From the NCBI GenBank assembly GCA_030649055.1, contig JAUSGH010000002.1, forward strand, positions 5,357 through 69,356: a stretch of DNA of 64,000 bases, read 5' to 3'. A model generated the notes under the pieces. That model was not told the DNA's origin. It ran no database searches and saw only the letters and a list, made by a program, of their open reading frames with translations. Source of the DNA: a bacterium. GTDB lineage: Bacteria > Patescibacteriota > Minisyncoccia > UBA6257 > JAUSGH01. Below are positions 4,248 to 61,286 of this stretch, piece after piece (positions within the stretch are counted from its first letter, which is position 1; the number at the start of each line of letters is the position of its first letter). Both the position numbers and the translations under genes were made by a program.

Positions 4248-4279
4248 CCGATGTAAATTTCTCATATTTCATTAAGGTT

Positions 4280-4400
4280 GTCCTTCGATCAACTCAGGAA
4301 CTAAAATTTTTATTCCCTGAGCGGAGGCGCTAGCAAGCGCCGTAGTCGAAGGGCTACGATATTCAGAAATTTTATTCCCTGAGCTTGTCGAAGGGCTACT
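4280..4400. repeat. tandem cluster of RPE-like palindromic element arms (one left arm, two right arms, one carrying an internal hairpin insertion)
   Basis: TCCTTCGATCAACTCAGGA...TTATTCCCTGAGC[GGAGGCGCTAGCAAGCGCCGTAG]TCGAAGGGCTAC...TTATTCCCTGAGCTTGTCGAAGGGCTAC, between convergent genes. Confidence 0.75.
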
Positions 4401-6765: not shown

Positions 6766-6775
6766 ATATGGTACT

Positions 6776-6806
6776 TATTCCCTGAGCTTGTCGAAGGGAT
6801 ACATTA
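6776..6806. repeat. RPE-like palindromic element, single arm
   Basis: TTATTCCCTGAGCTTGTCGAAGGGATAC. Confidence 0.7.
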
Positions 6807-7226: not shown

Positions 7227-7318
7227 CATTGCGAGGAGACCGACAGCCATCGGCCGACGAAGCAATCTTACATTATCGTCCGTCATTGCGAAGCCGACCG
7301 CGGTCGGCTGTGGCAATC
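7227..7318. repeat. two tandem GTCATTGCGAGG-[variable hairpin]-GAAGCAATCTTAC elements (family C)
   Basis: GTCATTGCGAGGAGACCGACAGCCATCGGCCGACGAAGCAATCTTACATT + GTCATTGCGAAGCCGACCGCGGTCGGCTGTGGCAATCTCAC. Related copies at 21781-21821 (inverted), 52381-52418 and a variant at 21700-21760. Confidence 0.6.
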
Positions 7319-7327
7319 TCACTCTCC

Positions 7328-7355
7328 TTATTTCCTGAGCCTGTCGAAGGAATAC
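7328..7355. repeat. RPE-like palindromic element, single arm
   Basis: TTATTTCCTGAGCCTGTCGAAGGAATAC. Confidence 0.7.
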
Positions 7356-7413
7356 ATTAAAAAGAAAACCAGCCGCCCCATCGGGAACGGCTGGCATTCG
7401 CGTCTGGCCTGTG

Positions 7414-7865: not shown

Positions 7866-8136
7866 TAAAATCAAAGGCGTGCAACGCCTACCTTATCATC
7901 ACTCCTACCTCCAAAGAATGGTGCTCCACAAAAAGGCGCGGCGCTCATTTTCGGCAACATATTGGAGCGATGCGTGAAATTCACGAGTAAAGAAATCGCG
8001 AAGTCGGAACAATGGCGCTGTGTGAATCCCGCAGGTCCGATGGCCATCGGACCGGAGGTTGAGTTCGCCTTGTTCCGGTAACTTCCGCGATTTTTTACGA
8101 ATAGAATTTCCGCGAGCGGAAATCGTTGCTGAAAAT
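7866..8136. other. conserved ~270-330 nt multi-hairpin element, copy 1 of 3 (candidate structured ncRNA / non-autonomous mobile element)
   Basis: Shares with copies at 16180-16451 and 53815-54140 a 5' hairpin plus TACCTTATCATCACTC, the core CGAAGTCGGAACAATGGCGCTGTGTGAATCCCG, a variable perfect hairpin (here GGTCCGATGG/CCATCGGACC) and GAAGGTTGAGTTCGCCTTGTTCCGGTAAC. Confidence 0.6.
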
Positions 8137-8242
8137 GAGCGCGGCGCCGCTCTAGTATTCGAGGCGGAGCGGGTAAGAAAAAGAATGGGGCGGCGAAACA
8201 CAAAAAATCGTCGACAAAAATAAGCGCGGCGGCATCCTAATC

Positions 8243-10450: not shown

Positions 10451-10487
10451 TCGCCGCTTTTCTTTCTTGCTTCATTGTTTTCTTGAT

Positions 10488-10913
10488 TTATCGCTGCACC
10501 TCCTCTCCCTCCGCGATCATCCGGTCAAGCTCCTCCATCACGTCATCCGGTATCGGAATTGCCTTGCCGGGCTTACTTATCCCCGGATACCTCCACGCGC
10601 TGATGATAGTCATTTTTGGTTTGCATAGCGACACCCGCAGCGCCTCCAGTTTTGCGTCCCCATGCTTTATTGTTTTATTGCTTTGTTGCTTTTTTGCCTC
10701 CTGTACCATCACCCAAATTTCCTCCTTGCGCCTCGGCGTATCATTCCGCTGCATCACCGCCACCGTGTTCGGCGCGACTCCCTCCTCGCGCCGCGTGCCA
10801 TTCTTAATCACGCGCCGAATACGCCCCTCGCCGAGGCCATAGTGGATCATTTTACTTTTCACATGCGACGTCCAATGCGTAGCAGTATCATCTTTTGGAA
10901 ATCGTAGCAACAT
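10488..10913 (-). CDS. hypothetical protein
   Basis: 141-aa ORF with no recognisable motifs. Confidence 0.35.
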   Translation of the reverse strand: MLLRFPKDDTATHWTSHVKSKMIHYGLGEGRIRRVIKNGTRREEGVAPNTVAVMQRNDTPRRKEEIWVMVQEAKKQQSNKTIKHGDAKLEALRVSLCKPKMTIISAWRYPGISKPGKAIPIPDDVMEELDRMIAEGEEVQR

Positions 10914-13186: not shown

Positions 13187-14464
13187 TTAATATTTACGCA
13201 ATCTGGAACGTAGTTCGCGATGGTACTTCACCGCAAACCGGTGTGCTTCGTCGCGGACGCGGATGAGCATATCGCGATTACGCGCGACTGCGGTGTGGAG
13301 TTCGTGCGGATAGAAAAAGTCGTTGCGCTTGCGCTCTGGCCCCTTAGCGATGCCGACAACCGGCACGGGCAGTTTCAACTCCGCAATCACCGCGCGCGCG
13401 GCATTCACCTGCGGCAATCCCCCGTCAATCAAAAGCAAATCAGGCATCGGCCACTCATCGTGCGTAAATCGCCGACGCAGCACTTCCGCAAGCATCCCGA
13501 CATCGTTTGAGCCGATAATTGTTTTAATCCGAAACTTGCGATATTCGTTTTTATCTGGCGCGCCATCGGTGAACACCACCATAGAACCGACCGCCGAAGT
13601 GCCGCTGACGTGCGAAATGTCGTAGCCCTCAACACGATGAAAGTCGTTTTCTCGCGTCGCTTTATCACCCAATACCGCAATGTCGTGAATATGCTGCAAC
13701 GCCGCGATGCGCCGACGGATAACGACGGCTTCCTCAAATTTTAATTCTCGCGACAACACCCGCATCTCGCGCGTCAGATCGCGCAAAATCTTTTGCTTTT
13801 TCCCCTCAAAAAACGCGATAAGCTGCCGGATGATTTTTTTATAATCGCGAGATGTGATGACGCCAGCGCACGTCCCGGGACAAAGGCCGATTTGATAATT
13901 AAAACACGGCTTCAGTTTCGGTTGTCCTTCGATAAACTCAGGAACTAATTTTTTTATTTTATTGCCTGAGCTTGTCGAAGGCGTACCTTTGTTTATCTCG
14001 TGACTACTCCACGGAAAAATCCTGCGCAGAATATGCAACGCCTCACGCAGTGACGCGGCGGAAGTAAACGGCCCGAAGCGGCCAAGCGGCCTATCGTGCG
14101 ACAGCGCCTCGCGCTCACGAAGCAACAACACGCGCGGAAATACCTCGCGGGTAATCACGACATAGAGAAAACTCCGGTCGTCCTTTTCCAGCACATTATA
14201 CTGCGGCTGATACTTCTTAATGAGCCGCGCCTCCAAAATCAGCGCCTCAATGACGGTGTCTGTTTGTTCAACATCAACCCTTGCCACTTCGCTAACCATT
14301 TTTGCAATCCGCAACTCCTGTGGCCTCTGGAAGTATGAGAGTACCCTCCTCTTCAAATTCGCCGCCTTCCCGACATACAGAACCCGCCCGTGCGTGTCCT
14401 TCATAAAGTAAACACCGGGAGTTAACGGAAGTTGTTTTTTTAATTTTTTGATGTCAATAGACAT
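13187..14464 (-). CDS. uvrC: excinuclease ABC subunit C (short form, no C-terminal HhH), with in-frame palindromic-element insertion
   Basis: GIY-YIG N-terminus (LPLTPGVYFMKDTHGRVLYVGKAANLKRRV), UVR-like region and RNase H-like endonuclease domain (GYDISHVSGTSAVGSMV). 425 aa. Residues [23 protein letters not shown] are encoded by repeat element 13924-13988. Confidence 0.9.
   Translation of the reverse strand: MSIDIKKLKKQLPLTPGVYFMKDTHGRVLYVGKAANLKRRVLSYFQRPQELRIAKMVSEVARVDVEQTDTVIEALILEARLIKKYQPQYNVLEKDDRSFLYVVITREVFPRVLLLREREALSHDRPLGRFGPFTSAASLREALHILRRIFPWSSHEINKGTPSTSSGNKIKKLVPEFIEGQPKLKPCFNYQIGLCPGTCAGVITSRDYKKIIRQLIAFFEGKKQKILRDLTREMRVLSRELKFEEAVVIRRRIAALQHIHDIAVLGDKATRENDFHRVEGYDISHVSGTSAVGSMVVFTDGAPDKNEYRKFRIKTIIGSNDVGMLAEVLRRRFTHDEWPMPDLLLIDGGLPQVNAARAVIAELKLPVPVVGIAKGPERKRNDFFYPHELHTAVARNRDMLIRVRDEAHRFAVKYHRELRSRLRKY
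13924..13988. repeat. RPE-like palindromic element (full, both arms) inserted in-frame in uvrC
   Basis: TCCTTCGATAAACTCAGGA...TTATTGCCTGAGCTTGTCGAAGGCGTACC. Confidence 0.8.
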
Positions 14465-14651
14465 AACACGGGCAGAATTTCTAATTTCAAATTACTAATT
14501 AATGACAAAATAAGCTACACGCCGGGGGTGGTGGGGAGAGATTTTTTGAGGTGAGGGAGGGTCATTATTATAAAAATTCAAAAGTAAAAATTTAAGAACT
14601 CTGTAAGAGAATACGAGAATTGGGTTGCTAACACGAACTAAATCCAAAGGC

Positions 14652-16127
14652 TCACTGCTGAGTCAATGCGACCCCTGTTACCCCATTAACGATTGCTATA
14701 ATCTCTCTCGTACCCGGCCCTGACGGGTAATAAACGAAGTTAGCGGACGGTTTTCCGTCAACGCTGCTCAAAAGAGTGGGGCAAGAAATATTTGGCCCCT
14801 GCATTTGCGCCCCAGAGTTACTGCTTATTCCGCCGCTACAAAAACGATTCAATTCCGGAAAACGATCGATATAGGCGGACCCGATAAACATCCCACCATC
14901 AGCAGCACTAATCGTAACCTTGTTGGCGGCAACTCTTTGGTCGAATTCAAAATAAAAAACTTCTATACTGCAAACCTTTTTATTGTCCATATCTATTCGA
15001 CAAGGTGATGGATTTACGATAACCGCCGCATAGTTTTTTGTTGATCTCGTCGAAAGAGTTCCGTGTGTTTTTGCAACTTCTATGCCAATAACAGATTCAA
15101 TCTCGTATGAATAGCTAGTATTGTGCTCTAAATTAGATACGTGAACTATATGGCGAGTAGATAATCCCGACTCGGAATCATAAATCTTCGGTGGTAAATT
15201 CCCGCTTGAAAGAAAAACTTTTGAATTAGTCGGTTTATTTGTCATCCATTCAAATAACATCGCATCAAATGTTGAGGTGGCATTTATTAATGTAATTTCG
15301 AGTGGTTTTACCGTGGTTGATGTAGTCACTGGAGTTGGTGTGACTACTTGCGGCGCAAAGGACGGGGTAGTAGATTTTGTTGGAACTATCGGTGCTACGA
15401 CCCTTTTCTTGTTCTCCTCTACTTCTTTTTTAATCAACTCGCTCTTCAGTTCTTCAACCTCCTGTTTTAATTTCTCAACTTCGGTTACTTGTTTTTCCTC
15501 ATCTTTTGCTTTCAGCTCCGCCACTTCCCGCCTCAATTTCTCAACCTCGCCTTTGAGTTCAACGATCTGTTTCGCCGCTTCTTCTTGGCCTTTTTTGCTT
15601 GCTTCAATGGCTTGCTCAATCGCCGCCCTCGCTTCCTCCGGAACCCTAATCAAAACAGCAGATAACACTTCCTGATTTCTTGAGGCACCATCCTCAATCG
15701 CGGCAAACAAACTTTCCGCTTGTCCTTTGTCCTTAACTTCTTTGGACTTTTCTGTCGCCAAGGCAACGTTACCTTCATAGTCCGCGATAGCCGCTTTGAC
15801 CGCGTCCGGATTTTTATCTCCTGCGATGGCTTCTACCTCTGCCAACCGCTCGTCGGCGTACTCTAGTGCCTTTTTAGCTTTCGCTTCGGGATTGAATGAA
15901 AAAAATAGAGCGATCTTTTCAGAAACCGTATCAAAAATATAGAAAAAACTGCCCGGCTTTACACCTGCGGTTGTGGCGGCGAAGGCAGAAACTGGCAGTA
16001 TCAAAGCAATAGACAAAATAAATAAATGTAAGATTGCCACGGGTACGACCGCGGTCGACCCTCGCAATGACGAAATAGAGGATGTTTTCATGAATATAAG
16101 CATATACCGTTTCTTGCTTTTTTGCAA
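14652..16127 (-). CDS. secreted/membrane-anchored coiled-coil protein, hypothetical
   Basis: 491 aa with an N-terminal hydrophobic segment, a long E/K-rich coiled coil (EVEKLRREVAELKAKDEEKQVTEVEKLKQEVEELK) and a Thr/Pro-rich linker. Palindromic motif copy 16145-16180 just upstream. Confidence 0.5.
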   Translation of the reverse strand: MQKSKKRYMLIFMKTSSISSLRGSTAVVPVAILHLFILSIALILPVSAFAATTAGVKPGSFFYIFDTVSEKIALFFSFNPEAKAKKALEYADERLAEVEAIAGDKNPDAVKAAIADYEGNVALATEKSKEVKDKGQAESLFAAIEDGASRNQEVLSAVLIRVPEEARAAIEQAIEASKKGQEEAAKQIVELKGEVEKLRREVAELKAKDEEKQVTEVEKLKQEVEELKSELIKKEVEENKKRVVAPIVPTKSTTPSFAPQVVTPTPVTTSTTVKPLEITLINATSTFDAMLFEWMTNKPTNSKVFLSSGNLPPKIYDSESGLSTRHIVHVSNLEHNTSYSYEIESVIGIEVAKTHGTLSTRSTKNYAAVIVNPSPCRIDMDNKKVCSIEVFYFEFDQRVAANKVTISAADGGMFIGSAYIDRFPELNRFCSGGISSNSGAQMQGPNISCPTLLSSVDGKPSANFVYYPSGPGTREIIAIVNGVTGVALTQQ

Positions 16128-16144
16128 CCGCCAGTCATTAAACT

Positions 16145-16180
16145 CGTTATACCCTCATTCGTGCGAATGAGTCCATGACC
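16145..16180. promoter_or_regulatory. palindromic operator-like motif upstream of the 14652..16127 gene
   Basis: CGTTATACCCTCATTCGTGCGAATGAG. Confidence 0.45.
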
Positions 16181-16451
16181 TAAAATCAAAAGCGCGCGGC
16201 GCTACATTATCATCACTCTCCTCCCCCAAGATGCAGAGCGCATGGAGGCAACCCTTCTTTTGAGCCAGCATGTTGGAGCGAGGGCAGCACTGCGCGAAGC
16301 GGAAAACCGCGACGTCGGAACAATGGCGCTGTATGAATCCCGAAACCGAGCAGTCGCCCGAGGCGACTGCTCGTGAAGGTTGAGTTCGCCTTGTTTCGGT
16401 AACGTGCGCGGTTTGTAGCGAGCAGCAGTGCTCCGAGCGGAAACCGCTGGA
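16180..16451. other. conserved multi-hairpin element, copy 2 of 3
   Basis: Shares CGACGTCGGAACAATGGCGCTGTATGAATCCCG ... GAAGGTTGAGTTCGCCTTGTTTCGGTAAC. The central hairpin is replaced by GAGCAGTCGCC/GGCGACTGCTC and the 5' hairpin by GCGCG/CGGCGC. Confidence 0.6.
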
Positions 16452-16509
16452 GAGAAAGGAGGGTTGCCGACAGAGACAGAGATCCTTCGCTTCACTCAGG
16501 ATGACATAC

Positions 16510-19125
16510 CTAGCGCAGCACTTTCCTCAAATATTCTCCCGTAAAACTCCCCTTTGCCCTCGCAATAGTTTCCGGAGTGCCGACCGCCACCACCTCCCCT
16601 CCCTTCTCTCCTCCCTCCGGCCCCAAATCAATCACCCAATCCGCGGTTTTGATGACGTCCAGGTTGTGCTCAATAACGACAACCGTGTTGCCGCGATCCA
16701 CGAGCCGATGCAGAATCTTCAAAAGATTTTCAATGTCGGCGAAATGCAATCCCGTTGTCGGCTCATCCAACAAGTACAATGTGCGGCCGGTGTCGCGCTT
16801 CGCGAGTTCCGTAGAAAGTTTGATGCGCTGGGCTTCGCCGCCGGAAAGCGTTGTGGCGCTCTGCCCCAACCGTAAGTATCCCAGCCCCACTTCGTTCACA
16901 ATCTTCAACCGGTCATACACCCACGGAATGTCGCGAAAAAACACCACCGCCTCCTCCACCGTCATCTGCAGAATGTCGTAGATATTTTTGCCTTTGTAGT
17001 CCACCTCCAACGTTTCGCGGTCAAAACGTTTTCCTTTACACACATCGCACTGCACAAACACCGTCGGCAAAAAATGCATTTCAATCGCAATCGTGCCGTT
17101 GCCCTCGCAATGTTCACACCGCCCGCCGGGCACGTTGAAACTAAACCTTCCGACTTTCCACCCCCTTATACGGGCCTCCGCCGTTGAAGCAAAAAGATCG
17201 CGGATATAACTCCACGCGCCGATGTAGGTCGCGGGGTTTGACCGCGGCGTGCGGCCGATTGCTCCCTGGTCAATGGAGATGATGTTATTCAAGTATTCCA
17301 AGCCGAGAATGGCATTCAATGGATGTTTGTAGCCCTTCGACTCCCCGCCCGCTGGCGGTTCGCTCAGGGAATAATGATTAAACTTACGCGAAAGCGTTTT
17401 CTCCAGCACGTCATACACGAGTGTGCTTTTGCCCGAACCGGAAACGCCCGTCACCGCCACAAAACGCCGCAATGGGATGTCCACGTTGATATTTTTTAAG
17501 TTATTCGCCGAGGCGCCGCGGATTTTGAGCATGTCCCTATCAATCATTCGGCGCTTTTGCGGCACCGGAATTTTTTTATCGCCGCGGAGATAATCCACGG
17601 TCAATGACTTGCCCTTCGGCGTTCCTTTGCCGAGCACTTCTTTAAGCGGCCCCGCAACCACGATATTGCCGCCGTGTACTCCGGCAGCAGGGCCGATGTC
17701 CACCAAATAATCCGCCGTACGGATAGTGTCCTCGTCGTGTTCAACAACAATGACGGTATTCCCCAGATCGCGCAGTTGCTTTAAGGTCGCGAGCAGCTTA
17801 TCGTTATCGCGCTGATGCAGACCGATGGTCGGCTCGTCCAAAATATAGAGCGTGCCCACCAGCCGCGATCCGATCTGCGAAGCCAGCCGGATGCGCTGCG
17901 ACTCCCCTCCCGAGAGCGTTCCGGCTCTGCGGTCCAACGTCAGATAATCTAACCCCACATCCAACATAAATTTCAGCCGATTTCTGATTTCTTTAAGCGG
18001 CACTTCCGCGATTTCCGCCGCCGCTTTTTTTACCTTATTACCCAACAGATCAAAAAAATCGTACGCATGGCCCACGGAAAGCCCCGTAAGGTCGGCGATG
18101 TTTTTATTGTTGATGAGCACGTTCAGCGCCTCCGGCTTCAGACGTTTGCCTTTGCATTGCGGACAAATCTCTTCGGACCACACATCCACTACCCCCAAAC
18201 CGTGGCACGCCTCGCAGGCGCCATATGGGCTGTTAAATGAAAAGAGCCGCGGCTCAATTTCCGGAAACGCGAAATTGTCCTTCGGGCATGAAAACTTTGA
18301 GGAGAGCGTGAATTCTTTTTCTCCGATGATAAACGTCGCGACATCGTTGCCGTACTTCAAAGCGCTTTCCACCGCTTCCGCAAGCCGCGCGCGCACGTCT
18401 TTGACGCCGAAGTTTAATCCGGCGGGCATGTGGTCAACAATAAGCTCAATCGTGTGCTGTTTATACCGCGAAAGTTCAATGCGGCTGTGGAGCGACAATA
18501 TTTTCCCGTCAACGCGCACCTCCCCGAAACCGCCGTTCAAAAAGTCATAGAGCAGTTGATAATATTCCCCCTTGCGTCCAATGACCGCCGGAGCGAGCAC
18601 TATAATCTCTTGCTTGGCAGCGGTAGCCCCTCGACTGTGCTCGGGGACTATTTTATCGTTACTCCCTGAGCTTGTCGAAGGGTTACCTTTACTCGCAACT
18701 TCGATGACGGTATCAACAATTTCCTCCGGCGTCATTTTGCGGATTTCGTCTCCGCACGTCGGACAATACGGCTTGCCGATACGGGCAAACAGCACGCGGA
18801 GGTAGTCATAGATTTCCGTGAGCGTCGCGACGGTTGAGCGCGGATTGCCGGAATGGCTTTTCTGGTCAATAGAAATGGCAGGAGAGAGTCCCTCAATTTC
18901 ATCAACGTCCGGCTTATCCATTTTTCCCAAAAACTGCCGCGCGTACGCGGAAAGCGACTCTATGTAGCGCCGCTGACCCTCGGCAAAAATAGTGTCAAAA
19001 GCAAGCGATGACTTCCCCGAACCGGAAAGTCCCGTGAAGACGATTAAACTGTTACGCGGCAGCTCAAGAGAAATATTCTTGAGATTATGCTCGCGGGCGC
19101 CTTTGATAATGATTTTGTCGTTCAT
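16510..19125 (-). CDS. uvrA: excinuclease ABC subunit A with in-frame palindromic-element insertion
   Basis: 871 aa with two ABC ATPase modules ([15 protein letters not shown] and [11 protein letters not shown]), LSGGEAQR signatures and zinc-finger Cys clusters. Residues [23 protein letters not shown] are encoded by element 18625-18688. Confidence 0.95.
18625..18688. repeat. RPE-like palindromic element (full) inserted in-frame in uvrA
   Basis: CCCCTCGACTGTGCTCGGGGA...TTACTCCCTGAGCTTGTCGAAGGGTTACC. Confidence 0.8.
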
Positions 19126-19137
19126 GGGTTATTGTAA

Positions 19138-19216
19138 CGCTTCGACTTCGGTCCGACGGACATCGGACCTTCGCTCAGCGAATAAAACTTTATTGCCTGA
19201 GTTTATCGAAGGCTTA
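19138..19216. repeat. RPE-like palindromic element, intergenic uvrA-uvrB
   Basis: CTTCGACTTCG...GCTCAGCGAATAAAACTTTATTGCCTGAGTTTATCGAAGGCTTACC. Confidence 0.7.
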
Positions 19217-19218
19217 CC

Positions 19219-21324
19219 TTATTTTTTATCTTTCGTTTTTCGCCTCAACAAGTGTATTTCATCCCTCAATATCGCCGCGAGTTCAAAGTCCAATCGTTTT
19301 GACGCGTCCTTCATCTGTCTCATTTTTTCGGCAATGATGCGGTCAAGCGACCCTTGTTTCATTTTTGTCGCCGCGCCGAGCGCCGAAAATTCCGTTTTCA
19401 ATACTTCGGCGACTTCCTTCTCCCGTTTGACGTCAAACGCCGCGACAATGTCGTGGATTGCTTTGATGATGGTCTTCGGCGTGATGCCATGCGCCTTATT
19501 CCACGCAAGCTGGATATTCCGCCGGCGGTTGGTTTCAGAAATCGCGCGCGTGAGCGACCCGGTCATCACGTCGGCATACAGTACCACCTGGCCGTTCACG
19601 TTGCGCGCCGCGCGGCCGATGGTTTGGATGAGCGAAGTTTCACTCCGCAAAAATCCCTCTTTGTCGGCGTCAAGAATGGCAACGAGCGACACCTCCGGCA
19701 AGTCCAATCCTTCGCGCAACAGGTTCACGCCCACAAGCACGTCATAGTTGCCGCGGCGAAAATCTGAAAGAATCGTGATGCGGTCAATGGTCAGCACGTC
19801 GCTGTGCACATAATTCACCTTGATTTTCAACTCCTGCAAATACGCCGTGAGATCTTCCGCCATTTTTTTGGTGAGCGTGGTCACGAGCGTGCGTTCCTTC
19901 TTCTTCACGCGATCTTTGATGCGGGAAATTAAATCATCTATCTGACTAAGCGGTTGTCCCTCGACATGCTCGGGAACTATTTTATTTTTATTGCCTGAGC
20001 TTGTCGAAGGCCTACCGCCACCACTGACCGGGCGCACAATAATTTCCGGGTCTACCAGTCCCGTCGGCCGAATAATTTGTTCCACGATCTGCCCGCTCGC
20101 CAAGCTGCGTTCCAGTTCATAACCGCTTGGCGTTGCCGAGGTATAGATCGCCTGCGGCATACGCGCCTCAAACTCGGTGAACTTGAGCGGCCGGTTGTCC
20201 GCCGCACTAGGCAGACGAAAACCGAACTCAATAAGCGTTTTCTTTCGCGCCGCATCGCCCTCCGACATTCCGCGAATCTGCGGCACCGTCACGTGGCTTT
20301 CATCAATCACCATCAGGTAATCCGGCGCGCCGTCTTCGGTAACGGGAAAATACGAAAGCAGCGTATCCGGCGGCTCGCCTGCCGCGCGACCCGAAAGATG
20401 CCGAGAATAATTCTCAATGCCGTGGCAGTAGCCGATTTCTTTCATCATCGCCACGTCATAGCGCGTGCGGCGTTCCAACCGCTCCGCCTCCAGCAATTTT
20501 CCGTTTTGCTCAAAATAATGCAACCGCTCGCGGAGCTCCGCTTTAATCACCTTCATCGCGCGCGTTTTTTCCGGTCCCAGCGTGACGAAATGTTTTGCCG
20601 GAAATACATAAACCTCCGGCACTTCCTCGCGGCTACCGAATCCCTTCACAGGATCCACCGCAAAAATATGCGAGATTACGCCATCGTGAATATCAAACCG
20701 ATACAACAGATCCTGATCCGGCGCCATCATTTCCCACTGGTCGCCGCGCACGCGGAATGTGCCACGCGTGAGGTCCGCATTCGTGCGCGAAAACTGCATC
20801 GCGACCAACTTTTTCATAAGCTCCGCGCGCGTCACCGCATCACCCACTTTGAAATGCAGCATCTGTGATTCATACGCCTCCGGCGCGCCCAAGCCGTAAA
20901 TACACGACACCGACGCCACCACAATCACATCGCGTCGCGTGAGTAACGCCGCGGTTGCCGCGTGGCGCAGTTTATCAATCTCGTCGTTAATCATCGCTTC
21001 TTTATCAATGTAGGTGTCCGTCACCGGCAAATACGCCTCCGGCTGGTAGTAGTCATAATAGGACACGAAATAGTGCACAGAATTTTTCGGAAAAAACTCG
21101 CGATACTCGTTGCACAGCTGGGCGGCAAGGGTTTTATTCGGCGCAATGACGAGCGTCGGTTTTTGTACCGCCTGGATGACATTCGCGACGGTAAATGTTT
21201 TGCCGGAACCCGTGACGCCGAGAAGTGTCTGGTGCTTCATACCTTTCTTCAAACCAGAAACAAGCCACTCGATGGCTTTCGGCTGGTCCCCCGCGGGCAT
21301 AAAATTGGATTGCAACTTGAACAT
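19219..21324 (-). CDS. uvrB: excinuclease ABC subunit B with in-frame palindromic-element insertion
   Basis: 701 aa. [10 protein letters not shown] helicase motif I, DESH, beta-hairpin region and C-terminal UVR domain. Residues [22 protein letters not shown] are encoded by element 19955-20017, between the IVRP and QIDDL motifs. Confidence 0.95.
19955..20017. repeat. RPE-like palindromic element (full) inserted in-frame in uvrB
   Basis: TCCCTCGACATGCTCGGGAAC...TTATTGCCTGAGCTTGTCGAAGGCCTACC. Confidence 0.8.
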
Positions 21325-21699
21325 TATGTTGTTTTTATGCTTTCTTGCTTCGTTGCTTTCTTGTCCGAAATACCCAAACGCCCCCGCGTCTCACGACATA
21401 GGGGGTGGTAGCGCGAACTTCGCGCTCGGACATATTCAATTACATACATTCTGACACAAAAAGATGCCAAACGTCAAACCATTGACAAAACATGAGGAGG
21501 TCTTCGATGAACGGAGACGAATCGAGGGAAATGACGCAAAGGGAGAGGAACCACGCGGAGATCCAGAGAGTGATCACCGCGGCCGGACTCGTGCCGATGA
21601 ACTACACCGCCGTTCTCCTTCCTCACTAGCCCTAGCGCCTCTCGCAATACTTCGGCCACTTATCCTTCGGGACGGGTGGCCGATTCTATTTTTACACGT

Positions 21700-21870
21700 C
21701 GTCACTGTCATTCTCACGGAAGCGAGAATCCAGAGTTTTGCATTTCTAGATTCCGGATCAAGTCCGGAATGACAAAATACAATGTAAGATTGCTTCGTCG
21801 CCTCAGGCGACTCGCAATGACAGTCGCCACCTTTCTTACTTCTTACTTCCTACGTCCTACTTCTCCCCTA
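21700..21870. repeat. composite repeat-rich intergenic block (family C variants, family D)
   Basis: GTCATTCTCACGGAAGCGAGAATC, ATTCCGGATCAAGTCCGGAAT, AATGTAAGATTGCTTCGTCGCCTCAGGCGACTCGCAATGAC, then CTTACTTCTTACTTCCTACGTCCTACTTC. Confidence 0.55.
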
Positions 21871-22523: not shown

Positions 22524-22565
22524 CATATGCTCTTACTTCTTATTTCTTACGTCTTACTTCTCACT

Positions 22566-23831
22566 CTACGGCACGATGGATACCATGAGTGACCGGTCGG
22601 GAGCGAAGAGTTCTTCAACGCCCGCTACCGCGTCAGCCCATGTCGTTGTTTCGATGACCTTCACTAGTTCTTCTTGCGTCTGTACGCACCCGAAAATCGA
22701 GAGGTCGATGAGCGTCGCAAGCACAAGCCCGGAGAGCTGAACCTGCTTCAACCTCATCCCCAGAAGCAACTCGTCACGCTCCACCTCAAACCACTTGCGC
22801 CCCCGCCGCTTCACGAGCTCGGGAATCTGCTTGAATGCCTCCGCGCATGCCACGAAGTGGTCGGGAGCGGCATCGACGCCGAGCCGGCAGAATCGCAAGT
22901 CGCGGAACGTCTCGATGGTCGGCCGTACGGCGTAGACAATGCCGAGTTTCTCCCGAAGCGTCGCGAAGCACGCGGATGCCGCAACGTTCACGCATAACAT
23001 CGCGCGCTGTTCATGCATGAGCGTGAGCGGTGTCGCGCGCATGCGCAAGACAGAACACTCGCCGGCAGGCTCATCGTCGTTTGAAGGCAGGCCAAGCACG
23101 TCACTCGGACGAACGACATACTGGCCGCACCGGATGGGACTTGCCGCCATCGGAGCAACTATCGTACGCTTCGCGTCTCCGTCGTGCGGAAGCTTTGGGA
23201 ACGCTTCTGCTGCTGCCCGCATCACCTCGGAAAACGTGGTGCTTCCCGCGACAACGAGCGCCATGTTCGGCAACGTGTGATAACGGACGAAGTGATCCTT
23301 GATGGCGCCTGCCGTCCACCGATTGATACCTTCCGATGTTTCAACGCGAAGAACAGGGTGTCCTTCGGGAAACGCCGCGCGCAAGATGGCGCGATGCACC
23401 GGCGTTGTCCGCGGCCCCACTTCGGCAAGTTCACGCTGGTGGATTTCCTGAAGATGAGTGATGGAAAGATGCTTCGGAAACACTCGCGCGTATACCGCGA
23501 GGAATCGCAGCATCTCCCGAAGCCGAAGCGAAACGCCGCGTACCATCCACCACGTACTTTCCGCGCCGGTACTTCCCAAATCTTCCGGAAGAAATCCGCG
23601 CTCGATTGCGTATCGCCGCGCCTTCGACACATCGCCGGAATCGCTACCCGCAATACCCATCGCATGTTCTACCGCGTGCGAAAGACCCGGCATCTCGGGA
23701 GGATCCTGCCGAACCCCGGCGAACATCACGAGACCGGCCGAAACCTGCGGAGGGTCAATGCGCATTGACTTCACAAACACGCGAAGACCATGCTTCGTGA
23801 CACCGCACCGAAACGCAAAGATATCTCTCAT
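22566..23831 (-). CDS. M16-family (pitrilysin/insulinase-like) zinc peptidase
   Basis: HAVEHAMG resembles the inverted zinc motif HxxEH of M16 peptidases. 421 aa. The gene lies in a GC-rich segment. Confidence 0.6.
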   Translation of the reverse strand: MRDIFAFRCGVTKHGLRVFVKSMRIDPPQVSAGLVMFAGVRQDPPEMPGLSHAVEHAMGIAGSDSGDVSKARRYAIERGFLPEDLGSTGAESTWWMVRGVSLRLREMLRFLAVYARVFPKHLSITHLQEIHQRELAEVGPRTTPVHRAILRAAFPEGHPVLRVETSEGINRWTAGAIKDHFVRYHTLPNMALVVAGSTTFSEVMRAAAEAFPKLPHDGDAKRTIVAPMAASPIRCGQYVVRPSDVLGLPSNDDEPAGECSVLRMRATPLTLMHEQRAMLCVNVAASACFATLREKLGIVYAVRPTIETFRDLRFCRLGVDAAPDHFVACAEAFKQIPELVKRRGRKWFEVERDELLLGMRLKQVQLSGLVLATLIDLSIFGCVQTQEELVKVIETTTWADAVAGVEELFAPDRSLMVSIVP

Positions 23832-28714: not shown

Positions 28715-28787
28715 TAATAATGCGAATAGGCTACTCGTCATTATTCGCATTATTTATCCCCCATTCGCATTATTCGCGATTACTTCA
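28715..28787. repeat. ATTCGCATTATTCGCGATTAC-type tandem motif cluster (family F)
   Basis: TAATAATGCGAATAGG...CATTATTCGCATTATTTATCCCCCATTCGCATTATTCGCGATTAC. Related copies at 29563-29605, 35655-35735, 47655-47700, 50017-50060 and 50484-50503. Confidence 0.6.
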
Positions 28788-29544: not shown

Positions 29545-29600
29545 AGTATGTACAAACTCACCCCATTCGCATTATTTGCCGCCATTCGCATTATTCGCGA

Positions 29601-30734
29601 TTACTCCACGACAATTCGCTCAATCAACGGATTAATGCGCGTCAAGTATTCATAATACGAGGCGCCACCCGCGGCCGCGGCGATTTCCTCCGCGCTGATT
29701 TCTTCTTTTCCCTGCATACCCGTGAGCGTCACCCGGTCGCCGAACTTGCAAGGAATCCCCGTCACGTCCACAACAACAATATCCATAGACACTCTGCCAA
29801 GCACCCGCGCGCGATGCCCATTAATGAGCACCTCGCCGACCCCGGAAAGCGCCCGGGGGAATCCGTGCCAATAACCGACAGGCAACACCGCGAGCATTGA
29901 GTCGCGGCGCAGGCGCTCCACTAAATCATATCCGACATAATCCCCTTTCTTCGCTGTTTTTACCTCGCCGACAATGGTATGCCACGAGAGAATGGGCTGC
30001 AGATTTATTTCCGGAAGCTGGATGCGCAACTCTTTTGATGGGTAGAGACCGTAAAAGCCGATACCGACTCTAACGGCATCGTAATGATATTTTTTGTTGA
30101 CCATCGCTCCGGCGGTCGCGGCCGCGTGACGGACCAATTTCTTCCAGCCGGCTTTTTTGAGCATCCCGATCGCGCGGTCAAACGCCGCCGCCTGCATGTC
30201 AGTATAGGTCGGATAATTGATGTCCTTCGCGGATGCAAAATGCGTATACACGCCGGTCAAAAATTTTCCCGACGATGATTTCTTGAGAGCGTCGATAACT
30301 TCGGGCAGATCTTCAACATAAAAACCCTGCCGATGCATGCCGGTGTCAATTTTCAGATGAAATTCGGGGGCGTTCTTTTCAGCGCAAAGCGCGCGGAGCG
30401 CATCCATACCGGAGATAGTAAGCGTGACCTTATGTTCCTGCGCCAAAGGGTAAAGTTTCGGCAGCGTAAAACCAAGCACAAGAATCGGAGCCGTGATGCC
30501 ACGCTCGCGCATCGCAACCGCTTCAATGATGCTGTCCACGCAAAAGCCGTCAACGCCGGCTTGGAAGAGCAGCGGCGGCATGACAAAAATGCCGTGCCCA
30601 TAGGCATTGGATTTCACGACCGCGAAAAGCTTCACTTTCGCCGACAACAATTTCCGCATCGCGGCGGCGTTATGCAGCACCGCGCTGCGGCTTATTTCAA
30701 CCCATGTACGGACATCGTGCGCGAGAGATTTCAT
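29601..30734 (-). CDS. alr: alanine racemase
   Basis: PLP-binding motif AVVKSNAYGHG near the N-terminus. 377 aa with two-domain architecture. Confidence 0.9.
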   Translation of the reverse strand: MKSLAHDVRTWVEISRSAVLHNAAAMRKLLSAKVKLFAVVKSNAYGHGIFVMPPLLFQAGVDGFCVDSIIEAVAMRERGITAPILVLGFTLPKLYPLAQEHKVTLTISGMDALRALCAEKNAPEFHLKIDTGMHRQGFYVEDLPEVIDALKKSSSGKFLTGVYTHFASAKDINYPTYTDMQAAAFDRAIGMLKKAGWKKLVRHAAATAGAMVNKKYHYDAVRVGIGFYGLYPSKELRIQLPEINLQPILSWHTIVGEVKTAKKGDYVGYDLVERLRRDSMLAVLPVGYWHGFPRALSGVGEVLINGHRARVLGRVSMDIVVVDVTGIPCKFGDRVTLTGMQGKEEISAEEIAAAAGGASYYEYLTRINPLIERIVVE

Positions 30735-34199: not shown

Positions 34200-35651
34200 T
34201 TATAATTTTTTCGGTCGCAATGTCGGAAAGAATACGCATTCCCTCGCCGGCTTATCTACGAGTATAGCAAACAATCGTTCGGAAACGCCAAACCCGGCCG
34301 CGGGCGGCATGCCGTATTCCAACGCCTCAAGAAAGTCTTCGTCTAAACGCTGCGCCTCCTTATCGCCCGCTTCGCGTAAGCGCGATTGCTCAAGAAACCG
34401 CTCGCGCTGATCCGCGGGATCGTTATTCTCCGAAAATCCTTTCCCAAGCTCGGTGCCACACGCGACAACCTGGAACCTGGCGACTCGCCCCGAAAGCGTT
34501 GCTGATCGTTTTGCCAGCGGCTCAATATCCGCCGGAGGGTTCACAAGAAAACACGGCGCAATAAGCGTTGACCGGACGACTTTTTTAAACAACAAATCGA
34601 TCAGACGGCCACGCCCGAGTTTGGGATCGGGTTTGAAACCGCGCTTCACCGACTCAGCAAAAAGCTCATCGCGCGTCGCGGATTCGAGCGATAGCCCCAC
34701 GAGTTTTTTAAACACGTCATAGTATTCAATTTTCGGCCAGCGCTTGCTCCAGTCGATGACTTGTCCCTGCCAGGACCGCTTCAATTTCCCGAACACGGAT
34801 TTGATAACGGACTTATACAATTTTTCAACCAGTGACATCAGCGCGCCGTACTCCGCATACGCCCAGTAAAACTCCAACTGGGTATAATCCTGCAAATGTT
34901 CGTGGTCAATGCCTTCGTTCCGGAAAATACGTCCGAGCTCAAACACTTTTTCATATCCGCCGACCAACAGTTTCTTCTGCGGAAGCTCCAGCGAAATGCG
35001 GAGATATAAATCAATGTCCAGGGCATGATGATGCGTCACGAACGGTTCGGCGTCTGCTCCTCCCGGGGTAGACTCCAAGGCGGGAGTTTCCACTTCCAAG
35101 AACCCGTCGTTAATAAGCCCGGCGCGAAACGCGTTCCAAAACCGGCTCTTCATACGAAACATTTCGCGGAGCTCAGGATGAAGCATCAGGTCCAGGTATC
35201 GTTGCCGGAGCCGCGTCTCAACCTCTTCCAGACCGAAATGTTCGGACGGAATCGGACGGATAGTTTTTGTCGCAAGCATAACCTTTTTCGCGGCAATGCT
35301 TTTTTCTCCGCGCTGGGTGACAAACAACGTTCCGGTAATGCTCAAAAAATCACCGATATCAAGATTATCGCGCAACAAATCAAACGCCGGCAGTTCATCT
35401 TTTTTGAGCACCGCCTGCAACGCGCCGCTCTCGTCCTTAAGGTCAAGAAACACCACGCCGCCGTGACCGCGCATGCCCACGACGCGCCCCACGACGGAAA
35501 TACGCTTTTTTGATTTTGTGAGCGCTGTGAAATGTTCCAACGCGACACCGATGGCATGCGTACGCGGCACAGATTCCGGATAACACAACACACCGGCAGA
35601 TGTGAGTGCCGCAAGCTTCTTCTTCCGTTCAGCGATAAGGTCTTCTAACAT
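34200..35651 (-). CDS. lysS: lysyl-tRNA synthetase (class II)
   Basis: N-terminal OB anticodon-binding domain (SVVGRVVGMRGHGGVVFLDLKD) plus class II core motifs (FRNEG, GGADAEPF). 483 aa. Confidence 0.95.
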   Translation of the reverse strand: MLEDLIAERKKKLAALTSAGVLCYPESVPRTHAIGVALEHFTALTKSKKRISVVGRVVGMRGHGGVVFLDLKDESGALQAVLKKDELPAFDLLRDNLDIGDFLSITGTLFVTQRGEKSIAAKKVMLATKTIRPIPSEHFGLEEVETRLRQRYLDLMLHPELREMFRMKSRFWNAFRAGLINDGFLEVETPALESTPGGADAEPFVTHHHALDIDLYLRISLELPQKKLLVGGYEKVFELGRIFRNEGIDHEHLQDYTQLEFYWAYAEYGALMSLVEKLYKSVIKSVFGKLKRSWQGQVIDWSKRWPKIEYYDVFKKLVGLSLESATRDELFAESVKRGFKPDPKLGRGRLIDLLFKKVVRSTLIAPCFLVNPPADIEPLAKRSATLSGRVARFQVVACGTELGKGFSENNDPADQRERFLEQSRLREAGDKEAQRLDEDFLEALEYGMPPAAGFGVSERLFAILVDKPARECVFFPTLRPKKL

Positions 35652-35736
35652 GGAGTAATCGCGAATAATGCGAATGGGAGTCCGAAGTTATTCGCGTTAT
35701 TTTTATTTGCAATTCGCGATATTTGCGAACACTATA

Positions 35737-38569: not shown

Positions 38570-38640
38570 ACCGTTATTATAAAAGCAAGAAAGCAAGAAA
38601 GCAAGAAATAGAAACGCCGGTCGCCTCCAGGCGACCGGCG

Positions 38641-39375: not shown

Positions 39376-39397
39376 TGCGTTACTCCCGATAGAAAAA

Positions 39398-39425
39398 GTA
39401 GTTCCTGAGTTTATCGAAGGACTAC
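39398..39425. repeat. RPE-like palindromic element, single arm
   Basis: GTAGTTCCTGAGTTTATCGAAGGACTAC. Confidence 0.65.
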
Positions 39426-39517
39426 ATTAGAATACTTTTTTTAGCATAACAAAATAAAAAATAAAATGAAAACACCGATCGCCCTAAGGCGATCGGTGTT
39501 GAACTTTTGAGATACGC

Positions 39518-39925: not shown

Positions 39926-40033
39926 TGCGCGTCTCCCTTTCTACAACGAGAATTCCTCATACCTACACTGCCCACACTATAGCAATACCGCAGGCAAAAA
40001 TCAATGAGATAAGAGGCGCAAACAAATACATAA

Positions 40034-40057
40034 CCCTTCGACAAGCTCAGGGAATAA
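40034..40057. repeat. RPE-like palindromic element, single arm (opposite orientation)
   Basis: CCCTTCGACAAGCTCAGGGAATAA. Confidence 0.65.
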
Positions 40058-40105
40058 AACGCAAAGGTTGAAAGATATAAATATAAAACTAAAGACAAAG
40101 AAGAA

Positions 40106-41493: not shown

Positions 41494-41499
41494 AGTATG

Positions 41500-41547
41500 A
41501 TTTGAAACTATCCGCGTTTTTCCGCGTTACTATCCGCGTCCGTCCGC
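41500..41547. repeat. ATCCGCG-type repeat (family E) abutting the secY start codon
   Basis: CTATCCGCGTTTTTCCGCGTTACTATCCGCGTCCGTCCGCTTCTATGC. Related copies at 47093-47140, 53192-53292 and 60893-60940. Confidence 0.6.
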
Positions 41548-41549
41548 TT

Positions 41550-41972
41550 CTATGCAACCACTTTACCACCCGCCGCTTCAATCTTTTTCTTCGCGCTCAA
41601 AGATACCGGAAGTTTTTCAACCGTCAACGCTTTTGCAAGAGTCCCCTCGCCCAAAATTTTGACCGGCGCTCCGGCGTCACGAATAAGTCCCGCCGCAACC
41701 AACGTGTCACGCGTGACCACAGCGCCCGCAACAGCATCAAGATCCTTGACATTCACCACCTGCATCGCCAATTTGTGCGGCTTATGATTATAACCGCGCA
41801 GCTTCGGCAAACGCATAATCAAATCACGTTCAGCCGGACGCATTCGGTGACCGGAACGGGATTTCTGACCCTTTTGTCCGCGACCGGATGTGTTTCCCCG
41901 CTTGCCGCCACGTCCGATGGTCGGTTTTGCGCGCTTTTGCGCAGTTTTTCTTTTTAGTTCATGCAATAACAT
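41550..41972 (-). CDS. rplO: 50S ribosomal protein L15
   Basis: GRGGKRGNTSGRGQKGQKSRSG motif. 140 aa. Confidence 0.9.
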   Translation of the reverse strand: MLLHELKRKTAQKRAKPTIGRGGKRGNTSGRGQKGQKSRSGHRMRPAERDLIMRLPKLRGYNHKPHKLAMQVVNVKDLDAVAGAVVTRDTLVAAGLIRDAGAPVKILGEGTLAKALTVEKLPVSLSAKKKIEAAGGKVVA

Positions 41973-44056: not shown

Positions 44057-44242
44057 TTACCAACTCGCTTTTTTCACTCCGGGAATTTGTCCTTTCCCTG
44101 CCATTTCTCGGAAACAAATGCGGCAAAGACCGAACGCTCTCATATAACCGCGTTTGCGCCCGCAGCGGAAACAACGGCGCACCTTTCGACTGGAAAATTT
44201 CGGTTTTTTATTCGCTCGCGCGATAACAGAAGTCTTTGCCAT
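44057..44242 (-). CDS. rpsN: 30S ribosomal protein S14 (zinc-binding type Z, 61 aa)
   Basis: [48 protein letters not shown] with Cys4. The ORF track begins upstream at 44347; the internal ATG is taken. Confidence 0.85.
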
Positions 44243-44255
44243 TTGCTTTTTGTTT

Positions 44256-44792
44256 TTATGCTTTCTTGCTTTCTTGCTTTTTGAACGGAACGCCGATTTC
44301 ACGATAAATCTCGAGCGCTGATTCACGCACACGCCGCCGTGGAACAACGGTGACCTCCATGCCGAAATTTACCTTCACAGTTTCCATATTGACTTCTGGA
44401 AATACTATATGCTCTTTGATGCCGATGGTCAAATTGCCATGCTCATCAACGGCGGTATTGCTGATCCCACGGAAATCACGCACGCGAGGAAGAACGGTGT
44501 AAAGCACTTTCGCGAGGAAATCACGCATCCTCCGGCGCCGCAACGTGGCCTTAAGACCAATCGTCGTTCCCTCACGAATTTTAAAACCCGCGATAGATTT
44601 CTTTGCGGGGGCAAACATCGGTTTTTGTCCCGTGATAGCCGAAAATTCCGCGACAACTTCCGGCAACACCTTATCCGCAAAATTCGCGGACTGCGAGAGC
44701 CGTCCGATTCCGGAATTCACGACAACTTTTTCAATTTTTGAGAAAGGATCGTTCTTCATATATATTAGATTACCCCTCCGCACTTTTTGCAA
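44256..44792 (-). CDS. rplE: 50S ribosomal protein L5
   Basis: L5 pattern ...VNSGIG...FKIREG...GMEVTVV. The start may be the internal ATG at 44759. Confidence 0.9.
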
Positions 44793-47082: not shown

Positions 47083-47092
47083 ATCTTTTGAT

Positions 47093-47140: not shown

Positions 47141-47141
47141 C

Positions 47142-50041: not shown

Positions 50042-50057
50042 TTCGCATTGTTCGCGA

Positions 50058-55766: not shown

Positions 55767-55804
55767 GCAATGTCTAAGTTCTAATTCCTAATGTCTGATT
55801 ATTG

Positions 55805-55875
55805 TATTCCTTCGACTTCGCTACGCTCCGCTCAGGAAATAAATTTTTATTCGCTGAGTGCGTCGAAGCGATACC
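55805..55875. repeat. RPE-like palindromic element (full), intergenic atpD-atpC
   Basis: TTCCTTCGACTTCGCTACGCTCCGCTCAGGAAATAAATTTTTATTCGCTGAGTGCGTCGAAGCGATACC. Confidence 0.7.
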
Positions 55876-55913
55876 GTCATTAGAAATTAGAAATTTGTGA
55901 TTAGAAATTTTCC

Positions 55914-59861: not shown

Positions 59862-59915
59862 ATGGTTCGACTTCGCTCACCGAATAATATTTCCTGAGCT
59901 TGTCGAAGGATTTCC
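59862..59915. repeat. RPE-like palindromic element (full), intergenic atpH-atpA
   Basis: GTTCGACTTCGCTCACCGAATAATATTTCCTGAGCTTGTCGAAGGATTTCC. Confidence 0.7.
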
Positions 59916-59917
59916 TA

Positions 59918-61206: not shown

Positions 61207-61281
61207 TTCGACCTGATTGTATTCCTTCGACAGGCTCAGGAAATAACATCACTTACTCCCTGAGCTTGTCGAAGGGCTACA
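61207..61281. repeat. RPE-like palindromic element (full), at the 3' end of atpB
   Basis: TTCCTTCGACAGGCTCAGGAAATAACATCACTTACTCCCTGAGCTTGTCGAAGGGCTAC. Confidence 0.75.
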
Positions 61282-61286
61282 TATAT

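Follow-up and report, generated by a model that had tools for sequence, protein, structure and literature searches.

Palindromic repeats in frame within the uvrA, uvrB and uvrC genes of an uncultured member of the Patescibacteria

We detected a family of small palindromic elements in a 64,000-nt stretch of DNA (contig JAUSGH010000002.1; hereafter the window, to whose 64 kb all window figures refer) from the genome of an uncultured, Paceibacteria-like member of the Patescibacteria. The element occurs at 13 places, nine of them intergenic and four in frame within genes, and these four are all in genes of nucleotide excision repair (NER), namely uvrA (two copies), uvrB and uvrC. We conclude that it is a non-autonomous element of the type of the repetitive extragenic palindromes (REPs) and the Rickettsia palindromic elements (RPEs), in a genome colonised by several small palindromic families. 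Sequence comparisons further show that the same loops of UvrA, UvrB and UvrC carry other, unrelated palindromic repeats in related Patescibacteria.

The family is built on a 17-nt core, CCTGAGCTTGTCGAAGG, which has 15 matches in the window (up to 3 mismatches) where 0.17 are expected (maximum of 2 in dinucleotide-preserving shuffles), so that chance similarity, named in the original prediction as a way in which it could fail, did not turn out to be the case. A repeat search of the window independently recovered the family (D2, D5, D10 and many inverted pairs), and an arm-profile search with nhmmer found 19 arms at the 13 places, in agreement with the predicted palindromic family of ~65-80 bp and ~12 copies. 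The arm, of ~28 nt, has the form 5'-KGTAK-N-CCTTCGACAAGCTCAGG-RAATAA, with an extra GC hairpin in the middle of some arms. It is usually paired with an inverted copy, the GTAG-like ends pointing outward (an 'HH dimer' in REP terminology), and the resulting inverted dimers are ~65-80 bp long. The strong pairing is between the two arms and not within a single arm. A model of the single arm as a variable stem with a conserved 13-nt loop was rejected, as stem extension past the core was not enriched over permuted controls. In the mRNA sense, the dimers within genes fold into single long hairpins (uvrC -27.1, uvrA -35.4 and uvrB -31.3 kcal/mol; z-scores -6.6, -7.8 and -6.2, respectively), as had been foreseen for full copies, and a scan of folding energy over 80 nt was too unspecific at 52% GC to identify further hairpins within genes. 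The element matched no Rfam family at gathering or permissive thresholds. In the open-access literature, the motif was not printed in any paper, searches with the DNA core and the peptides as strings gave nothing relevant, and no paper on these elements was found among those on Patescibacteria and repeats; a protein search with a 73-aa concatenation of the three insert peptides gave no candidate sharing words with it.

The host genes and the copies that they contain, all on the minus strand, are the following.

13187..14464, minus strand: uvrC, 425 aa (short form; 361 bits with NCBIfam TIGR00194, cut-off 285)
13921..13988, minus strand: inverted dimer in uvrC, in frame, about residues 159-181
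16510..19125, minus strand: uvrA, 871 aa (1269 bits with NCBIfam NF001503, cut-off 1147)
17329..17374, minus strand: single arm with a GC-rich inner hairpin in uvrA, in frame, about residues 584-599 (16 aa)
18622..18690, minus strand: inverted dimer in uvrA, in frame, about residues 146-168
19219..21324, minus strand: uvrB, 701 aa (964 bits with NCBIfam NF003673, cut-off 743)
19952..20017, minus strand: inverted dimer in uvrB, in frame, about residues 436-458

The original prediction had recognised the three dimers, with the reading frame kept in each, and both their positions and the peptides quoted for them agree with the translations. The single arm in uvrA, found here as two adjacent profile half-hits, had been missed. 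It reads TTATTCCCTGAGC[GAACCGCCAGCGGGCGGGGAG]TCGAAGGGCTAC, has the architecture of the intergenic copy at 4308-4360 and is translated in a different element frame from the dimers. The proposal that the same element frame is used each time thus stands for the three dimers and fails for the fourth copy, and the proposal of three copies confined to NER genes stands for the genes and fails for the count. Intergenic sequence, which is 12% of the window, is strongly enriched in the element (9 of 13 places, P = 3e-6), the copies mostly occupying short spacers between co-directional genes, and a simple gene map agreed with the intergenic assignment that had been given to all 9 places. Since the intergenic copies carry the same sequence, the DNA and not the peptide is the repeated unit. 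The uvr genes account for 10.7% of the ORF (open reading frame)-covered sequence and hold 4 of the 4 copies within genes, which would have P ~1e-4 if the copies were independent.

Alignments to structures and near relatives show every in-gene copy to be a net in-frame insertion. Solved UvrB sequences (9gy7, 2d7d) match the window protein over residues 2-435 and 460-696, with chain positions 429 and 429/430 flanking a clean 24-aa insertion, and both the ORF translation and the PDB alignments place it between the IVRP and QIDDL motifs, as first described. In the alignment with Geobacillus UvrA (2r6f), which covers residues 3-142 and 173-312, residues 143-172 of the window UvrA have no counterpart. 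Among the relatives, the dimer insert of UvrA is present in P0121 (98% identical) and its site is empty in P0122-P0125 (90%, 88%, 78% and 76%). The single-arm insert, on the other hand, is present in P0121 (98%) and P0122 (90%), decayed in L001/P0123 (88%) and absent in P0124 and P0125 (78% and 76%). There were thus two insertion events of different age in uvrA. The single-arm copy is an older insertion that is decaying, and the dimers of uvrA and uvrC were gained after the split from relatives that are ~88-90% identical. In L001 (UvrB 85%, UvrA 88% identical), the site of the uvrA dimer is empty, uvrC is 16 aa shorter at the insert site, and uvrB contains an unrelated 24-aa insert at the position of the window's UvrB insert; no good copy of the core was found in the 22 kb of this locus. 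The groundwater contig L246 (samples ERZ978523 and JGI 3300001380; UvrA 97.6%, UvrB 93.7% and UvrC 89.5% identical) has orthologous copies in all three uvr genes, which differ from those of the window by a 3-nt indel in uvrB and a 6-nt indel in uvrC. Both indels preserve the frame, which fits translated inserts. An assembly artefact is excluded, as contigs of separate public origin (ENA, JGI, Logan) contain the in-frame insert too. The empty sites in structures and relatives support the predicted in-frame insertion of a mobile-type palindromic repeat, and the segment, absent from the solved structures and near relatives, is not the ancestral Uvr feature whose presence would have spoken against it.

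The inserts of UvrB and UvrC are predicted to lie in disordered loops, based on AlphaFold2 models built with homologue alignments. In the UvrC model (mean pLDDT 90.3), residues 160-175, within the insert, form the sole segment with pLDDT below 50, and residues 150-187, which hold the insert, have no predicted secondary structure. In the UvrB model, pLDDT is below 50 for residues 436-455, which are flanked by a strand (427-431) and a helix (461-474). The UvrC insert is found between FPWSS and KPCFNYQIGLCPGTC, a region that we take to be the cysteine-rich segment after the GIY-YIG domain. The uvrA dimer is placed shortly after the first zinc module, in a region that is presumably the UvrB-binding domain, going by the domain boundaries of 2R6F. 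The orthologue alignment that had been proposed as a check of the prediction thus confirmed the insertions, those of UvrB and UvrC in loops predicted to be disordered and that of UvrA without a counterpart in 2r6f.

Several further features of these proteins were observed. The UvrA of this clade is without the insertion domain of ~115 residues, and residues 302-419 of the 2r6f chain have no counterpart in it. PDB matches of the window UvrC are limited to the GIY-YIG and RNase-H-like domains. The protein is without a middle segment (TIGR00194 profile positions ~240-360 are unmatched) and without the C-terminal part, which we assume to be the (HhH)2 domain, and UvrC proteins of ~400-460 aa are common among the nearest representatives. 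Between uvrC and uvrA lies an ORF of 491 aa (14652-16127) with an N-terminal hydrophobic segment, a Glu/Lys-rich stretch and no NCBIfam match; it is not at the corresponding position in L001, L123, L124, L125 and L246, whose uvrA-uvrC gene order differs.

The loops that hold the inserts are variable in the relatives. Among 119 parsed nearest homologues of UvrB, the loop is minimal in 73, has 3-7 extra residues in 25 and 14-44 extra residues in 21, and these 21 long inserts comprise at least 12 unrelated sequences, counted by eye. The UvrA loop has the baseline length in 87 of the 120 nearest homologues and is longer in 33; many of the expanded loops have what we take to be peptides typical of palindromic repeats (VIPAQAGIQ..LRRDD, HSERSEAS..LRSAQNDK). 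The UvrC spacer has ~11 residues in most of the 62 parsed representatives and 20-71 residues, with repeat-like peptides, in 15. At the DNA level, the inserts of L123, L124, L125, L252 and L253 are strongly palindromic (-19 to -51 kcal/mol), and in L125, L123, L252 and L253 other parts of the locus have more copies, full or partial, with just a weak 24-nt match in L124. L125 is a true replicate of the triple uvr hit with another repeat family: the only three copies of its unrelated family GGAATCAGG...CCTAATTCC in 20 kb sit in uvrB, uvrA and uvrC, those in uvrB and uvrA using the same two loops as the window copies. In L251, a single-arm variant of the window family (NPSA[NS]SGRG) occupies the same loop of uvrA and, in uvrB, a different one. 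In the UvrC of L246 (16655-18010), a second family provides a 33-aa insert (SFPRMRESR..FRIKSGMTT) in the RNase-H-like domain, and in P0122 (L250) 14 aa, ARQFASLQAIAGGP, are inserted at a third site of UvrA, which L124 also uses, with an insert of ~10 aa (..DSRLRGNDK). As a control, internal indels of at least 8 aa were found in 3 of 20 comparisons of neighbouring genes, compared with 11 of 15 for uvr genes (Fisher P = 0.0012); this control set is small, consisting of 12 non-uvr gene families that adjoin the uvr genes in the same genome pairs, and the loci of the relatives were all chosen for containing uvr genes. The split uvrB of L253 was considered as an element insertion and rejected, since the frameshift lies elsewhere and other genes of the contig are fragmented too, which makes a sequencing error the probable cause.

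The copies of the uvr locus are related to each other. Those in uvrC, in uvrB and in the uvrB-uvrA spacer share the variant GGTAnn-CCTTCGA..CTCAGGCAATAAA, private to these three in the window, so that the uvr hits are not fully independent events. Short-range spread or conversion within the 6-kb uvr locus thus probably contributed to the triple hit. In the uvrB copy, the perfect arm comes first in the window, and in L246 the 'ATAAAC' variant comes first and the perfect arm second, a swap that points to conversion or re-insertion. Element identity between the window and L246 is inconsistent (100% in uvrA, 93% in uvrC, and 78-80% in uvrB, below its flanks), and no inference about selection was drawn from it.

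The intergenic places in the window are listed below.

4273..4400, between convergent genes: three-arm cluster, one arm with an inner GC hairpin (fold -48.1 kcal/mol, z -5.0)
6774..6806, in a 38-nt spacer: solo arm; its ACATTA end either provides the upstream gene's TAA stop or adjoins it
7327..7359, in a repeat-rich intergenic region: solo arm, the overlying ORF without a Pfam match
19126..19218, filling the uvrB-uvrA spacer and abutting the uvrB stop codon: compound copy, an outer stem with two inner hairpins (fold -33.1 kcal/mol, z -4.7)
39396..39428, intergenic: solo arm
40030..40059, downstream of secY, inside an 89-aa ORF without a Pfam match: solo arm in the opposite orientation
55801..55877, spacer in the atp operon: degenerate dimer with an extended arm (fold -22.6 kcal/mol, z -2.3)
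59862..59917, spacer in the atp operon: dimer with a degenerate first arm
61216..61284, intergenic: best-preserved dimer (fold -40.0 kcal/mol, z -10.8)

An over-extended ORF covers the copy at 7327, which is 5' of a TATAAT box and of the likely true ATG.

Other repeats were also observed in the window. A second palindromic family, GAGATTGC-(variable hairpin)-TCGCAATGAC, occurs at 7240-7330, 21765-21830 and 52346-52420 and gives peptides like IASS..RNDG; the same family is found as the UvrA insert of L124 and as part of the UvrB insert of L123. A long-hairpin repeat of ~160-200 nt has three copies (7929-8146, 16240-16467 and 53934-54150), which directly follow the 3' ends of minus-strand genes, namely a YchF-like one, uvrA and one of 378 aa, respectively. 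Its minus-strand consensus fold has ~54 bp, 14 pairs of which show compensatory changes, and an apical hairpin that is different in every copy. Rfam gave only a sub-threshold S15-leader-like match for it, and the ORFs of 110 aa and 97 aa that overlie two of the copies are probably spurious. In addition, four families of short, periodic direct repeats (period 8-10 nt) were recognised, as listed here.

21321-21368, 44234-44289, 60353-60400, 10451-10701 and 38579-38617: periodic direct repeats of the family GCAAGAAA
21834-21876, 22531-22573, 48951-48993, 57286-57342 and 58275-58317: periodic direct repeats of the family GAAGTAAGACGTAAGA
41498-41553, 47092-47147, 53243-53288 and 60894-60939: periodic direct repeats of the family GGATAACAACGCGGATGAACGC
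28741-28785, 29562-29606, 35647-35734, 47658-47702 and 50019-50063: periodic direct repeats of the family CATTCGCATTATTCGCGATTACT

In the cases that were read, the periodic repeats occupy short spacers immediately 5' of gene starts, that of uvrB included, and they may be promoter or leader elements.

The closest precedent for the window element is found among the REPs, which have been divided into superfamilies by a GTAG or a CGTC tag (Di Nocera, De Gregorio & Rocco 2013; PMC3733652). Their main arrangement is that of dimers with the GTAG ends outside, their loops contain inner self-complementary GC-rich parts, and they lie near gene 3' ends (PMC3733652). Intragenic REP dimers encode 20-30 aa and occur in uvrA, uvrB and other repair genes, which in many species are the only REP-tagged coding sequences, a bias that was left unexplained and for which mutator phenotypes were speculated (PMC3733652). 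Examples are the uvrB of R. conorii (two units, equated with RPE-4 and RPE-6, which are counted among the CGTC-tagged REPs), the uvrA of Thioalkalivibrio and both uvrA genes of Opitutus terrae, so that in-frame repeats in uvr genes were known earlier from Proteobacteria, Verrucomicrobia and Rickettsia (PMC3733652). The striking restriction to NER genes noted in the original prediction is thus real in the window (4 of 4 copies within genes) and, as a novelty, does not stand; it is a rediscovery, since repair-gene REPs, often the sole tagged coding sequences, had already been reported (PMC3733652). A related preference, for the 3' ends of DNA-repair genes, has been noted for QMITE1 and QMITE2 of Coxiella (PMC5896051).

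The window element resembles the GTAG-tagged REPs in its small palindromic units with a GTAG-like end, in its outward dimers, in its alternative inner GC hairpin loops and in the concentration of its intragenic copies in repair genes. HH dimers or compounds of them make up 7 of the 13 places, and all 9 intergenic places lie between unidirectional or convergent ORFs near 3' ends, two of them abutting stop codons. There are also differences. The GTAG end is conserved at more than 90% in most published REP families (PMC3733652) and only partially in the window, where among 18 aligned arms (a chance match at 23419 set aside, motif classes read by eye) the motif before the core is exactly GTAG in ~6, GTAG or GTAT in ~10, and GTAA, GTAC, GTTG or another in the rest. 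The REP unit has a stem of 5-13 bp and a loop of 2-20 nt, compared with 4-5 bp, (C)CCT/AGG(G), around an 11-nt loop in the window single arm. Patescibacteria, to which the source names of the nearest UvrA and UvrB homologues assign the host of the window element, were not covered by the REP survey, and the repeated use of the same loops by unrelated families seen here was reported in that survey only for recB of Xanthomonas (PMC3733652). Furthermore, the window core recurs in many phyla without a GTAG end, unlike the GTAG-tagged REPs.

By its behaviour, the element also resembles the RPEs, being palindromic, in frame in conserved genes and adding a peptide at tolerated loop positions. The RPEs are reported to be selfish DNA inserted in frame into conserved genes (Ogata et al. 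2000; Claverie & Ogata 2003), and they are not known outside Rickettsia. RPE-1 is ~100-150 bp long. The window element differs in its lineage, in being shorter than RPE-1 and in a core that is spread across phyla. [quoted passage not shown] As in MITEs, the arms of the window element are terminal inverted repeats, that is, inverted copies of each other. On the other hand, direct reading of the ends gave no target-site duplication of the MITE kind at its dimers, it is much smaller than most MITEs, and its insertions are internal to genes and not at their 3' ends. The RPEs had been proposed as the closest precedent. This holds for the in-frame insertion of a palindrome, and it gives way to the repair-gene REPs (PMC3733652) as the closer precedent, and to a core that is not private to one lineage.

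A genome scan for the exact core, with one genome per species, gave at least 120 loci (L003-L122), which among the matches listed span Bacteroidota, Cyanobacteria, Chloroflexota, Proteobacteria, Actinobacteria, Acidobacteriota, Planctomycetota, Nitrospirota, Verrucomicrobiota, several groups of Patescibacteria and others. As ~70 chance matches to the core are expected in the whole genome collection, the context of each copy matters. Among the matches listed, 25 of 137 copies have the hexamer GTTCGC before the core, 67 of 137 have an inverted partner within 150 nt, 32 of 137 have a direct partner, and longer unit-level stems occur in 8 of 137 copies, compared with 3.8 in permuted controls (control maximum 8). 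In other phyla, the core is often found in inverted pairs or tandem arrays (L017, L092, L114), the flanks cgttcgC-core and gtcaC-core recur, and among the matches listed neither the GTAG end nor CTAC after the core was found. A metagenome scan for dimers in the arrangement of the window likewise gave at least 120 loci (L126-L245). Among the matches listed, 21 of 129 metagenomic dimers lie in long open frames, and eight have a confirmed protein host, seven by Pfam and one by BLAST. Among the matches listed, these hosts are the UvrB of a Patescibacteria-like contig (L130, at a different site), TilS (with three tandem copies), IspE, a proline-racemase homologue, a GT2 glycosyltransferase, a TreY-like amylase-family enzyme, a short-chain dehydrogenase and an MptE/Maf-like protein. 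In-frame residence of the element is thus common and not confined to NER genes, and a single UvrB in a set of eight hosts still exceeds what would be predicted from gene number alone. The plasmid and phage collections gave one weak Sphingobium match and no phage match.

Taken together, we propose that copies would arise anywhere by transposition or conversion, through an enzyme encoded outside the window, and that those in genes would persist only if their length is a multiple of three, their frame is free of stops and the 16-24 added residues fall in a tolerant loop. The PSTSSG/PELVEG frame would be one of the few open frames of the element. The three loops of UvrA, UvrB and UvrC would act as recurrent landing pads, local spread in the uvr locus would have helped to yield the triple hit, and the inserted peptides would be translated and most likely neutral passengers. 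We give this combination of tolerance-filtered copies, local spread and mostly neutral translated inserts a probability of roughly 0.72.

Several observations weigh against it. Over the uvrA dimer (window 18622-18690, L246 10440-10510) and ~60 nt upstream, the window and L246 show 100% identity, compared with 88.8% for the uvrA genes at the DNA level, which hints at nucleotide-level constraint or recent conversion and not at simple neutrality. The GTAG-tagged REPs are associated with the gene of a REP-associated tyrosine transposase (RAYT, of IS200/IS605 type) that the repeats flank, and a tblastn search of the 64 kb with E. coli YafM found no RAYT-like ORF; neither direct reading of the ends nor comparison of filled and empty uvrA sites gave a target-site duplication at any dimer. 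Tolerance alone is a weak explanation, as a 785-aa TraG-like protein, SecY, the ATP synthase subunits and the seryl-tRNA synthetase carry no copy in the same 64 kb, and it leaves the same repair-gene bias in unrelated phyla (PMC3733652) unexplained. In addition, translation of the inserts is read from the DNA, and the genome is represented by these 64 kb. A parent insertion sequence with matching ends was not found in the window either. Outside the window, an anammox-related contig (L012, 4565-5065) has a 166-aa ORF with a weak tblastn match to the RAYT query, in which a YIHANP motif and an HUH-like one (LNHIHLI) were read. GGGTTCA..TGAACCC hairpins of its own flank this ORF, and a dimer of the window core lies ~80-130 nt downstream. 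As a mobiliser of the core this ORF found no support, its own flanking hairpins being different.

The link to NER could instead be non-neutral, with repeats targeted to the uvr genes or insertions selected there, so that repeats and NER genes co-evolve; UvrABC would then be weakened or retuned towards a mutator or recombination-prone state, or would attack the hairpin or cruciform DNA of the repeats less. The exclusive presence of the in-gene copies in uvr genes, improbable by gene length, would fit such a link, as would the independent replicates with other families or at other sites (L125, L251, the UvrC of L246 and the third UvrA site of P0122), the enrichment of uvr genes in indels over their neighbours, and the UvrB among the eight confirmed hosts of motif-selected metagenomic dimers among the matches listed. 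The bias across phyla with its mutator speculation (PMC3733652) and the repair-gene neighbourhood bias in Coxiella (PMC5896051) point in the same direction. The location of the uvrA insert does too, in the part of the protein aligning to what, by the 2R6F boundaries, should be the UvrB-binding domain. However, the inserts of UvrB and UvrC are in loops modelled as disordered, the same family resides in unrelated enzymes of other phyla, and close relatives do without the inserts; the indel enrichment, moreover, comes from loci selected for uvr genes and a small set of neighbours. We therefore consider a non-neutral link unlikely.

A role at the RNA level, in which the hairpins would be a shared cis-element (a nuclease or protein site) coordinating the uvrA, uvrB and uvrC messages and the peptide a by-product, might be suggested by the stable mRNA-sense hairpins in the three genes and the uvrB-uvrA spacer, by the perfect conservation of the uvrA dimer DNA, and by the other family that marks all three genes in L125. 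It is very unlikely, given that the same hairpin is also present in atp operon spacers and elsewhere, that the uvrA dimer is absent from L001 and P0122 and the uvrC copy from L001, that conservation of the uvrB copy is lower than that of its flanks, and that Rfam gave no match. Removal of the segment before the mature protein (intron-like, intein-like or by translational bypass), which would leave the Uvr proteins unaltered, has in its favour the general point of a strong hairpin inside a coding region. Every in-gene copy, however, is in frame and free of stops, orthologous copies differ by the frame-preserving indels described above, with 46-69 nt the copies fall far below the size of an intein or self-splicing intron, Rfam gave no intron match, and R. 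conorii proteins with an N-terminal RPE-1 are expressed in vivo according to evidence cited by PMC3733652, all of which makes such removal highly implausible. An ancestral Uvr feature, chance similarity or an assembly artefact is refuted by the number of core matches, the empty sites in relatives and structures, and the independent contigs with the insert.

The window provides the first case in the Patescibacteria of the published repair-gene repeat pattern. What is new here is the dating of gains through filled and empty sites in relatives that are 76-98% identical, the replicates in which one family marks two or all three uvr genes and, as the main new result, the definition of three loops that are repeatedly hit by unrelated families. 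It is possible, though doubtful, that the NER genes are specific recurrent targets across the Patescibacteria and other phyla, with inserts or mRNA hairpins altering NER in favour of the repeats or the host and with the 17-nt core kept by a common recognition factor. If this were true, altered NER could mean less incision at hairpin or cruciform DNA, or raised mutation or recombination. For annotation, it matters that the inserts make conserved proteins longer and that intergenic copies give rise to small ORFs that are spurious. Overall, an old and anecdotal repair-gene bias becomes testable, as independent gains can be counted on a tree against those in other genes and natural Uvr variants are available with and without inserts.

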